Shown here: piece by piece, positions 20,935-22,705 of the stretch | Position numbering within the stretch: position 1 is the first letter of the stretch | Layout of the letters: each line of letters begins with the position of its first letter | Assembly: GCF_000195855.1 (NCBI RefSeq) | Contig: NC_002677.1 | Coordinates: forward strand, 1,050,001-1,082,000 | Direction: 5' to 3' | Origin: Mycobacterium leprae TN | Lineage (GTDB): Bacteria > Actinomycetota > Actinomycetes > Mycobacteriales > Mycobacteriaceae | Length of the DNA: 32,000 nucleotides | The notes under the pieces: generated by a model | Told to the model about the DNA's origin: nothing | Databases searched by the model: none | The model's input: the letters and a program-made list of their open reading frames with translations, nothing else | Program-made: the position numbers and the translations under genes

Positions 20935-20980
20935 ATGGGTCTTTATGGGGCAAAGTGGTGGATTGTGGGGTATGGTGACT
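20935..20980 (+). promoter_or_regulatory. Candidate MraZ operator: 10-bp-phased RTGGKK direct repeats
   Basis: ATGGGT(20935) cttt ATGGGG(20945) caaa GTGGTG(20955) gatt GTGGGG(20965) tatg GTGACT(20975). The hexamers have 4-nt spacers and an exact 10-bp period. They lie 48-93 nt upstream of the mraZ start. Confidence 0.55.
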
Positions 20981-21027: not shown

Positions 21028-21459
21028 GTGTTTCTCGGCACCCACACGCCCAAACTCGACGACAAGGGGCGGCTTACTTTGCCCGCTAAATTCCGCGATG
21101 CGTTGGTAGGGGGGTTGATGGTAACCAAGAGCCAAGACCACAGCTTGGCTGTCTACCCCCGGGCGGAATTCGAACAGCTAGCGCGCCGCGCTAGCAAGAT
21201 GTCGCGAAGTAACCCCGAAGCCAGGGCGTTCTTGCGCAATCTCGCTGCTGGGACCGACGAACAACATCCCGACATGCAAGGCCGGATCACGTTGTCAGCC
21301 GACCACCGTCGCTATGCCAACCTTTCTAAGGATTGCGTGGTGATTGGAGCCGTCGACTACCTTGAAATCTGGGACGCACAGGCTTGGCATGACTACCAAC
21401 AGACCCACGAAGAGAACTTTTCCGCGGCCAGCGATGAAGCACTTGGCGACATCATCTAA
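21028..21459 (+). CDS. mraZ: Transcriptional regulator MraZ
   Basis: Two SpoVT/AbrB-type repeats with DxxxR motifs ([14 protein letters not shown] and [12 protein letters not shown]). GTG 21028 is preceded by GGGAGG (21015-21020). 143 aa. Confidence 0.95.
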
Positions 21460-21526
21460 TGCGTGGTTACTCGCTGCATCCGGCTCCGCCGCGCTTGCGA
21501 TCGCCACGAGATCTAAGGCGCATGCT

Positions 21527-21615
21527 CCCGCATCGTGGTCTCTGTCCGAAGGCACGACCCTGGCGTACTTCCCCAACGCCAGGGTCGTGCCTTCGGACAG
21601 AGACCACGATGCGGG
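21527..21615. repeat. Perfect 40-bp-arm inverted repeat with a 9-nt loop between mraZ and the rsmH core
   Basis: The left arm 21527-21566 is CCCGCATCGTGGTCTCTGTCCGAAGGCACGACCCTGGCGT. The loop is ACTTCCCCA. The right arm 21576-21615 is its exact reverse complement, which I verified base by base. Confidence 0.95.
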
Positions 21616-22705
21616 GATATTTGCGTTCTTCGGGGCGGTTCCGAGGAGCGACAGGTGCCGCCAGACCCGGGGAGGTGGCGAGGTGGTTGACGGCTCAAGT
21701 GTTTTCGGGCATGTGCCCGTCTTTGCGCAACGGTGTGTCACTCTGCTTGCCCCCGCGTTGACCCGCCATCACGCTGACGGGTCCAATGCGATCCTGGTGG
21801 ATGCCACTCTCGGTGTTGGTGGGCACGCAGAGCGATTCCTGACCGAATTTCCGGGTTTGCGGCTGATTGGACTTGACCGCGACCCGAGCGCCCTGGATAT
21901 CGCCCGGACTCGGCTAATGCGATTTGCCGACCGGGTCACGTTAATCCACACGCGTTATGACAACCTCGCTGTAGCACTGAACAAATTTGGTTATGCCGCA
22001 GTGGAATCGGTCGATGGTGTGCTGTTCGATCTGGGTGTTTCGTCCATGCAGCTGGACTGTGCCGAGCGGGGTTTTTCCTACGCTCAAGACGTGCCGTTGG
22101 ACATGCGGATGGACCCGTGGTCACCGGTTAGCGCGGCCGACATCGTCAATAATTACGACGAGGCCGCATTAGCCGATATCCTTCGCCGGTATGGTGAGGA
22201 GCGATTCGCGCGCCGCATCGCTGCGCACATCGTCCGCCGGCGTGCCCACACCCCGTTTACTTCGACCGCCGAGCTGGTAGCTCTGTTGTACCAGGCGATT
22301 CCAGCACCGGCCCGGCGCATCGGAGGCCATCCGGCCAAGCGCACGTTTCAGGCGTTGCGGATCGCGGTCAACGACGAGTTGAACTCGCTGAGTAACGTCC
22401 TTCCCGCTGCGCTGGATGCGCTCACTGTGGCCGGGCGCCTCGTGGTGCTAGCCTATCAGTCGCTCGAAGACCGGATTGTCAAACGCGTGTTTGCCGACGC
22501 GGTCTCCTCCCGCACACCGGCGGGCCTCCCGATCGAACTTCCGGGCCATGGACCGCGATTCCGGTTGTTGACGCGTGGCGCTGAACACGCAGATGCCGCC
22601 GAGATCGAATGTAATCCCCGCAGTGCCGCCGTGCGATTACGGGCTCTGCAACGAACCCAGCATGGAGTGGAACCGCAGCAGCCAACCAGGAGGGGCGACT
22701 CATGA
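21587..22705 (+). CDS. rsmH: 16S rRNA (cytosine1402-N4)-methyltransferase RsmH (MraW)
   Basis: The core begins [11 protein letters not shown] (about 21710). It carries [13 protein letters not shown] (SAM site), [11 protein letters not shown] and [18 protein letters not shown]. The start is uncertain. GTG 21587 lies inside the right arm of the palindrome. GTG 21683 has GGAGG (21671-21675) 7 nt upstream and is the better ribosome-binding candidate. The track start at 21344 overlaps mraZ and is not credible. Confidence 0.9.

Follow-up and report, generated by a model that had tools for sequence, protein, structure and literature searches.

What kind of element is the long palindrome between mraZ and the catalytic core of rsmH in Mycobacterium leprae, at which level does it act, and why are its arms free of mismatches? 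An inverted-repeat search of the window, i.e., the whole 32,000-nt stretch of the M. leprae TN genome that was analysed, located two arms of 40 nt each at positions 21527-21566 and 21576-21615. The arms are 100% complementary and 9 nt apart, as a first-pass annotation had described them, and enclose the loop ACTTCCCCA (21567-21575). As RNA, the stem is lengthened by an extra U·G pair (21526/21616). The 241-nt region around the palindrome folds with -155 kcal/mol (z = -9.9), and none of 200 dinucleotide shuffles folded as well. No second copy of the arm was found in the 32-kb window with up to three mismatches allowed, at a chance expectation of 0. The element is single-copy in the window and syntenic elsewhere, and the suggestion of a MITE or another dispersed repeat such as REP was rejected.

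The palindrome is embedded in a compact arrangement on the forward strand. Upstream, mraZ extends from 21028 to 21459 (GTG start, TAA stop at 21457-21459, 143 aa) and encodes a protein identical to MRAZ_MYCLE. The stem follows shortly after, as annotated earlier, with 67 nt between stop and stem. A MIRU-like interspersed repeat of about 60 nt (21457-21526) forms an in-frame insert between the mraZ stop and the hairpin. This insert is missing in most mycobacteria, where the stem begins 9 nt past the mraZ stop, and copies or inverted copies of it were found at other loci. Like MIRU, it is short, dispersed, intercistronic, sometimes tandem, and leaves the reading frame open; the likeness concerns the neighbouring insert only and not the palindrome, and it is drawn from these traits rather than from the published MIRU consensus. 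On the 3' side, the palindrome is followed by the tail GATATTTGCGTTCTT, present as quoted in the first-pass annotation, and by a second, smaller predicted hairpin (21618-21657) in a lineage-restricted linker that is missing from the M. haemophilum protein. The RsmH methyltransferase core (Pfam Methyltransf_5, hmmscan E 2e-111) covers residues 91-407 of the 423-aa open reading frame from ATG 21434, i.e., nucleotides 21704 to 22654, in agreement with the earlier placement of the core from about 21700 onwards.

A scan of the window against Rfam returned a single family, the cis-regulatory mraW RNA (RF01746). The covariance-model match at 21520-21626 is full-length (97.6 bits on the forward strand, E 1e-20, model positions 1-107 of 107) and well above the gathering score of 50; the opposite strand of the palindrome scored 72.2 bits, so that the forward strand is favoured by 25 bits. 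The terminal loop ACUUCCCCA (21567-21575) contains the portion ACUUCCCC that is invariant across the mraW RNA family and is the RF01746 consensus loop, and the conserved terminal loop 5'-(A)CUUCCCC-3' of the motif is present. The position 3' of mraZ and 5' of the rsmH core in an actinobacterium also corresponds to that of the motif, and the stem covaries across the family. The palindrome represents the actinobacterial mraW RNA motif in M. leprae, a family membership that the first-pass annotation had missed. As a type of element it is already known, and its novelty as a kind is nil. The motif was reported as a cis-regulatory candidate of Actinomycetales, with its riboswitch status given as "?" (Weinberg et al. 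2010, PMC2864571), and according to the latest statement that we found, published by this laboratory in 2017, its function "remains unknown" (PMC5640933).

The M. leprae copy shares the long hairpin, the invariant CUUCCCC loop, the mraZ-mraW/rsmH interval, and the actinobacterial host with the other members of RF01746. In contrast to the family, however, its stem is free of mismatches, wobble pairs, the bulge, and the asymmetric internal loop; its stability exceeds that of the median homologue by about 35-40 kcal/mol, and the 60-nt repeat sets it off from the mraZ stop. Internal loops, mismatches, and a bulge are typical of the mraW consensus, and the unbroken stem marks the M. leprae copy as a derived variant without excluding it from RF01746. 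A second difference concerns the description of RF01746 as a non-coding 5' UTR element. The motif is intergenic in other actinobacteria but frame-locked into the rsmH open reading frame in Mycobacteriales. What goes beyond the catalogue entry, as far as comparison of homologous loci can tell, is the restriction of the perfect stem to M. leprae and M. lepromatosis among 159 hairpins, together with this frame-lock in Mycobacteriales.

To describe the family, 80 Mycobacteriaceae loci were fetched via the MraZ protein alone, which leaves the sample unbiased towards the motif, and a further 120 loci from diverse actinobacteria were obtained by a pattern scan of metagenomes. All 80 MraZ-fetched loci carry ACTTCCCC just 3' of mraZ. 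The ACUUCCCC columns are likewise invariant in an alignment of 92 non-redundant hairpins, although most of its rows were picked for the loop. RNAalifold predicted a single rod-like hairpin without a multi-helix junction for these 92 sequences; 20 of its 28 consensus pairs show compensatory double changes. Paired cells amount to 93.7%, as compared to 78.1% in column shuffles and 28-48% with the 3' partner slid, and double-change cells number 415 versus 125 in shuffles; none of 500 shuffles attained the observed values. U·G pairs are common in the family (one pair is U·G in 53 sequences of the alignment). As these would be C·A on the other strand, they indicate a sense-strand RNA structure of the mraZ-rsmH transcript. 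The mraW family is an RNA structure on the forward strand, neither a DNA protein site nor a mobile repeat. The early intuition that a selected, RNA-level element rather than a chance palindrome occupies the mraZ/rsmH junction was right.

How does such a structure relate to the downstream gene? In 81 Mycobacteriaceae, loop and RsmH "HxPV" core are 98 to 266 nt apart, with 30 distinct distances, 29 of which are 2 modulo 3, the exception being a MAG. When Mycobacteriales-type members from metagenomes are included, the loop-core distance is 2 modulo 3 in 92 of 93 sequences. The other actinobacteria serve as a built-in negative control, with 19, 19, and 16 sequences in the three classes; they show neither the frame-lock nor the stop-free frame described below. 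The frame-lock across the hairpin was an unexpected result of the comparison. Spacing in multiples of three was also considered as an artefact of repeat units and rejected, because eleven consecutive classes from 95 to 125 nt in steps of three are impossible to obtain from 57-60-nt units.

The frame can be followed upstream into mraZ. Every member has an ATG in the rsmH frame, +1 relative to mraZ, 8 codons upstream of the mraZ stop (21434-21436 in the window), which is the candidate start of a long, 423-aa RsmH. The ATG-loop distances in Mycobacteriaceae (67, 73, 88, 130, 133, and 244 nt) are all 1 modulo 3. The ATG is made by the codon for MraZ Asp136, which is GAT in 103 of 104 unique Mycobacteriales-type sequences; GAC accounts for 78% of mraZ Asp codons overall. 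In the 81 Mycobacteriaceae, mraZ codons 128-141 show little or no change, in contrast to the freely varying codons 101-127, and the last 16 or so codons (21409-21456) are nearly without synonymous variation, which makes them a probable initiation region and overlap for the long rsmH frame. Between this ATG and the core, 92 of 93 sequences have no stop in the rsmH frame, whereas each of the five other frames contains stops in 18 to 93 of the 93. Translation of another frame or of the opposite strand was rejected, as only the rsmH frame is stop-free. The linker bases vary at all three codon positions, which shows that the frame is kept and the peptide is not.

These observations bear on how the open reading frame through the hairpin is to be understood. 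Nearly identical peptides from both strands of the palindrome, pointed out in the first-pass annotation, are indeed found in the ORF translations. The conclusion drawn there, that the passage of rsmH through the hairpin is an artefact of ORF callers, is contradicted for Mycobacteriales, in which the frame from ATG 21434 to the core is kept over about 30 spacer lengths and is the sole stop-free one. Instead of forming a 5' UTR, the Mycobacteriales hairpin lies in the rsmH frame, and ribosomes appear to translate through it. A programmed +1 or -1 frameshift or a bypass from mraZ into rsmH was rejected, as there is neither a slippery sequence nor a matched take-off and landing sequence. At the pre-stop sequence GAC AUC AUC UAA/UGA, tRNA-Ile cannot re-pair at +1 (UCU) or -1 (CAU). 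The conserved ATG is a simpler way into the rsmH frame than frameshifting.

The start of RsmH itself is annotated inconsistently. Five versions of the M. leprae protein are deposited (340, 372, 401, 420, and 423 aa), and the 423-aa protein from the conserved ATG is already deposited for both M. leprae and M. lepromatosis. The 372-aa version of UniProt/EMBL begins inside the 3' arm of the palindrome, at GTG 21587-21589, a codon in the rsmH frame that had been correctly assigned to this arm. The 340-aa version begins at GTG 21683, which is preceded by a GGGGAGG Shine-Dalgarno (SD)-like box and a 7-nt spacer (21669-21685); the GGAGG-N7-GTG listed earlier at 21671-21685 is present and in frame with rsmH. 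This second start, CGGGGAGG-N7-GTG, is conserved too. GGGGRRG is fixed 41 nt upstream of the His codon in 43 of 93 Mycobacteriales-type sequences (background 0.00035 per nt), and a conserved "RGGVAVAD" is seen here. Ahead of ATG 21434 we found no clear SD sequence, and nothing for the mraZ-rsmH locus was found in the Ribo-RET supplementary files of PMC9094748 that were searched. An N-terminal extension of M. tuberculosis RsmH, which the first-pass annotation had mentioned, is borne out by an sRNA study whose authors argue that the long annotation is wrong and favour the short start (PMC3526491). Frame conservation argues for the 423-aa form from the ATG, which may coexist with the 340-aa form, and two RsmH starts, ATG 21434 and the SD-led GTG 21683, are plausible. 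The earlier proposal of 21683 as the real start holds in so far as this start is conserved, but not as an exclusive choice, because the ATG of the long frame is kept as well.

The second peculiarity of the locus is the perfection of the stem. When 159 unique homologous hairpins are ranked by their longest uninterrupted Watson-Crick run, M. lepromatosis (41) and M. leprae (40) come out on top; the next best reaches 17, and the median of the 157 others is 8. In every other species, the stem is imperfect in a conserved manner: it is interrupted by a bulged G, by mismatches of the types U·U, C·A, and C·U, and by an internal loop that is asymmetric, with CC opposite GUGCC, and two or three of its pairs are U·G. 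The deposited 410-aa RsmH of M. haemophilum also encodes an ordinary imperfect stem, which places the origin of perfection after the split from this species and before the split between M. leprae and M. lepromatosis. The perfect stem of 40 bp is derived within the M. leprae/M. lepromatosis lineage. The perfecting changes lie on both arms and each deletes one imperfection. The 5' arm gained GGCA, the exact complement of the 3' strand of the former internal loop, and G·U pairs of the stem were turned into A-U. Removal of G·U pairs, which are harmless in RNA, suggests that a mutational process at the DNA level is behind the perfection. Since their separation, the two leprosy species have reached 91.1% identity over 6.4 kb, a background divergence of about 9%; their arms differ at four bases that amount to two fully compensated C-G to T-A pairs. 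Such compensated differences between the two species show that the perfection is being maintained.

It is most likely that the perfection was made by templated (quasipalindrome) correction at the DNA level, aided by GC-to-AT drift. In quasipalindrome correction by intramolecular template switching (the Ripley model), which has been studied in Escherichia coli and yeast, an imperfect repeat is likewise perfected by copying of the opposite arm, and the M. leprae arms also gained 3-4 nt by a templated insertion and no longer have G·T pairs. Unlike the model, however, the M. leprae case is drawn from a comparison of species, and several events in both directions are required. GC-to-AT drift combined with selection for pairing could explain five transitions among the roughly eight arm changes, but would leave the insertion and the missing bulge unaccounted for. 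The perfection of the stem could also be selected, e.g., for stability. The first-pass annotation had read the perfect stem as evidence of special selection or a recent origin, a view that fits poorly with a state that is common to M. lepromatosis, absent from M. haemophilum, and extends to the removal of G·U pairs. Perfection probably signals no new function.

We favour the proposal that the hairpin acts as a post-transcriptional gate between mraZ on one side and rsmH with the downstream division and cell wall (dcw) genes on the other. The hairpin would form in the mraZ-rsmH transcript just 3' of mraZ and present the loop ACUUCCCC. RsmH synthesis would then depend on ribosomes that come from, or restart at, the end of mraZ and melt the helix, while the SD-led GTG 21683 could give rise to the short form of RsmH. 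An untranslated helix might resist nucleases or serve in processing and so give rise to small fragments that are stable, and the invariant loop would imply some factor that reads it. The gate, processing, and loop-reader steps of this proposal are those that we infer. The stop-stem-start geometry of other actinobacteria is consistent with a gate. In a large non-mycobacterial clade, the mraZ stop lies 0-2 nt before the first stem pair and the rsmH ATG 14-24 nt past the last one, without an SD sequence between them; with this spacing, the helix would bring the mraZ stop and the rsmH start together. However, some clades have long spacers and strong SD sequences before rsmH, so that the juxtaposition of stop and start is not universal, and the 60-nt insert of M. 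leprae puts the mraZ stop 67 nt from the stem. The gate model also does not explain the invariant loop.

The arrangement resembles termination-reinitiation across a hairpin, as in the CaMV 35S shunt or in operons in which a structure is unmasked. Ribosome shunting is a eukaryotic process. In many actinobacteria, mraZ stops at the foot of the helix and the next start lies about 15-24 nt past the other foot, without an SD sequence, whereas the Mycobacteriales restart codon lies within the end of mraZ. The analogy to a shunt is one of geometry only; the M. leprae open reading frame runs through the helix and not around it. Taken as a whole, an mraW hairpin that is translated through in Mycobacteriales, serves as a gate, and was perfected by templated correction is our best explanation, and we consider it probable, albeit with clear reserve. 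The more specific version for Mycobacteriales can be offered only tentatively, with the balance tilted against it: a translated, frame-locked helix that gives a long and a short RsmH and couples entry into the dcw genes to mraZ translation, with the helix of the leprosy bacilli perfected by templated correction and kept so via compensated changes.

The strongest alternative, which we nevertheless rate as rather doubtful, is that the motif is mainly a signal for RNA processing or stability. Cleavage of the stem by RNase III, or of the C-rich loop by RNase E/J, would split mraZ from the rsmH-dcw mRNA, the hairpin halves would shield the ends so created and build up as small stable RNAs, and translation would be incidental. 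The motif is tied to the 3' end of mraZ in all clades, with 0-35 nt from stop to stem, while 14 to 250 nt separate the stem from the rsmH start. Long double-stranded stems between cistrons are likewise known from intercistronic RNase III/RNase E hairpins (T7 early mRNA, rpsO-pnp, rnc leader). Specific RNase III sites typically have conserved internal loops, but M. leprae has lost those that would direct cleavage to a defined site. On H37Rv gene coordinates that we take to be correct, the 30/60-nt RNA of M. tuberculosis was calculated to cover the 3' arm. This abundant RNA, sRNA candidate 1359, maps to the present segment, is highly expressed, and gives 30- and 60-nt Northern bands (PMC3526491). 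In Corynebacterium glutamicum, the 3' arm contains a 5' end that is located 16 nt short of the 3' terminus of the motif (PMC3890552), and the motif was recovered in an sRNA library; the mraW transcription start of C. diphtheriae is downstream of the motif. The transcription start for rsmH that corynebacterial RNA-seq data put in or after the motif could, however, mean an internal promoter and not processing. Small stable RNAs from the mraW site in M. tuberculosis and C. glutamicum are reminiscent of the "decRNAs", stable fragments carved out of the dcw mRNAs of the E. coli mraZ-rsmH-fts operon (PMC6156199), but the mraW hairpin has no sequence relationship to these and its cleavage by a nuclease is a candidate only. 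In the literature that we searched, no cleavage site at nucleotide level was found for any mycobacterium, and the frame-lock shows that the intact, uncut RNA serves as message in Mycobacteriales. Of the functions listed in the first-pass annotation, processing and attenuation are still candidates.

An RNA operator is unlikely but deserves mention for what it accounts for. The loop ACUUCCCC, held on a rigid helix, would be bound by a trans-acting factor, e.g., RsmH itself, a KH or S1 RNA-binding protein, or the ribosome, that represses or activates rsmH and the dcw genes. An 8-nt loop that is invariant in 80 of 80 independently sampled loci, on top of a stem that covaries freely, is the pattern of a sequence-specific contact, and nothing else accounts for the conservation of the loop. 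The check for mimicry of the RsmH substrate failed, however, and the open riboswitch status of the motif (PMC2864571) adds no support for an operator. Mimicry of 16S h44 (G-C-C-C-G with C1402·A1500) was rejected because the mismatch is not kept: mycobacteria have C·A, U-A, A-U, or C-G at this covarying position.

In a further scenario, which we consider improbable, the loop would act as an anti-SD mimic: by pairing with GGGGAGG at 21669-21675, it would block the short rsmH start as long as no ribosome opens the helix. The loop 5'-ACUUCCCC-3' can form 8 pairs with 5'-GGGGAGGU-3' at 21669-21676, and the fixed position of GGGGRRG in 43 of 93 Mycobacteriales-type sequences far above its per-nucleotide background fits such pairing. 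Yet a 7-nt complement between hairpin and core occurs in just 3 of 54 other actinobacterial members, in which the loop is invariant too, and any SD sequence is partly complementary to a CCUCC-like loop, so that the match is weakly specific. With the complement in 43/93 mycobacterial sequences versus 3/54 others, kissing between loop and SD was rejected as a family-wide mechanism and is retained as a minor rival only.

We give even less credence to an intrinsic (Rho-independent) terminator or attenuator that ends most transcripts after mraZ, another of the functions proposed earlier. A very stable GC-rich hairpin directly after a stop codon and the moderately U-rich tail of M. leprae, GAUAUUUGCGUUCUU, would speak for it. 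However, the terminator scan made no call, as the tail has 4 T in 8 and thus fewer than 5 T in an 8-nt window, and the other 79 mycobacteria have a GGGGCG-type tail that is not U-rich, which leaves both M. leprae and its relatives without a U-tract. Moreover, the stem is far longer than terminator stems, the essential dcw genes downstream rely on read-through, and the reading frame is conserved across the hairpin; an intrinsic terminator was rejected.

A DNA-level role as palindromic protein site, cruciform, or mobile MITE/REP-like repeat is hardly credible, for although the perfect palindrome could in principle extrude as a cruciform in M. leprae and adjoins a MIRU-like repeat, the element is single-copy in the window, occurs once per locus in roughly 160 motif-bearing loci among 200 fetched and always at the same syntenic site, has relatives that are strongly imperfect as DNA yet pair as RNA via U·G, and carries a strand-specific loop, so that this reading is largely refuted for the mraW family and the protein-binding site of the first-pass annotation is disfavoured by U·G pairs and strand asymmetry.

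The preferred account, of a translated hairpin at the mraZ/rsmH junction that may gate access to rsmH, concerns a motif at the entrance of the actinobacterial operon for cell division and cell wall synthesis, including that of the tuberculosis and leprosy bacilli. Its value lies in a frame-locked, probably translated Mycobacteriales motif and in the lineage-specific perfection of a palindrome, both of which are directly testable. The frame-lock, the ATG that overlaps mraZ, and the geometry of stop, stem, and start turn an orphan motif into one that is accessible to simple tests, and the inconsistent annotation of the rsmH start is a concrete target for annotators and proteomics groups. The perfect stem offers a clean natural example of a quasipalindrome perfected in a reductively evolving genome. 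If the proposed coupling is true, the amount and form of RsmH and entry into the dcw genes would be linked to mraZ translation, a bacterial counterpart of shunting or termination-reinitiation.

The hairpin of the mraW RNA motif (Rfam RF01746), which separates mraZ from the region encoding the RsmH core, is flanked in M. leprae by inserted sequence on its mraZ side and by a second structure on its rsmH side. An in-frame insert, a MIRU-like interspersed repeat of ~57-60 nt (window 21457-21526), separates the hairpin from the mraZ stop. The same repeat is present in three of the other loci fetched for comparison (L027, L057 and L063 (three tandem copies)) and as inverted copies in five (L002, L040, L041, L067 and L089). 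In other species it also sits, in either orientation, in the variable linker 3' of the hairpin, and the rsmH frame is open in all cases of insertion. Directly 3' of the palindrome, a second hairpin of 17+6 pairs (window 21618-21657) codes for 12 residues including AVPRSD, a segment found again in the linkers of L017, L019, L021 and L023 and absent from M. haemophilum RsmH.

Among the Mycobacteriaceae, only locus L042 (3480-3690) carries hairpin and RsmH core out of frame, at a distance of 210, with an in-frame stop. L042 derives from a metagenome-assembled genome, and an assembly indel is therefore a likely cause of the lost frame. In L189 (6246 and 6285) and L093, a second ACTTCCCC-type loop near the first suggests partial tandem duplication of the mraW motif. 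Outside the mycobacteria, a clade of metagenome loci (L091, L104, L107, L115, L122, L133, L134, L142, L166, L169, L177, L194 and L198) places the first stem pair 0-2 nt after the end of the mraZ stop codon and the rsmH ATG 14-24 nt beyond the last stem pair; no purine-rich SD was found in the stem-to-ATG spacer of these loci.

M. leprae RsmH (window 21434-22705) is represented in public databases by five N-termini, giving proteins of 340, 372, 401, 420 and 423 aa. The 372-aa form (UniProt/EMBL) starts at GTG 21587, within the 3' arm of the hairpin, and the start codon of the 401-aa form seems to be a non-canonical ATC. At its other end, rsmH runs into the ORF for a proline-rich protein of 377 aa: the TGA that stops rsmH and the ATG that opens this ORF overlap as ATGA (window 22702-22705), an arrangement characteristic of translational coupling.

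Approximately 60-90 nt 5' of the mraZ start, four TGGG/TGGT repeats follow each other with an exact 10-nt period (20936, 20946, 20956 and 20966; window 20936-20969). The strict four-repeat pattern occurs four times in the 1.0 Mb of fetched loci, each time upstream of mraZ. TGGGN direct repeats are bound by E. coli MraZ, and the array at 20936-20969 resembles a MraZ operator.
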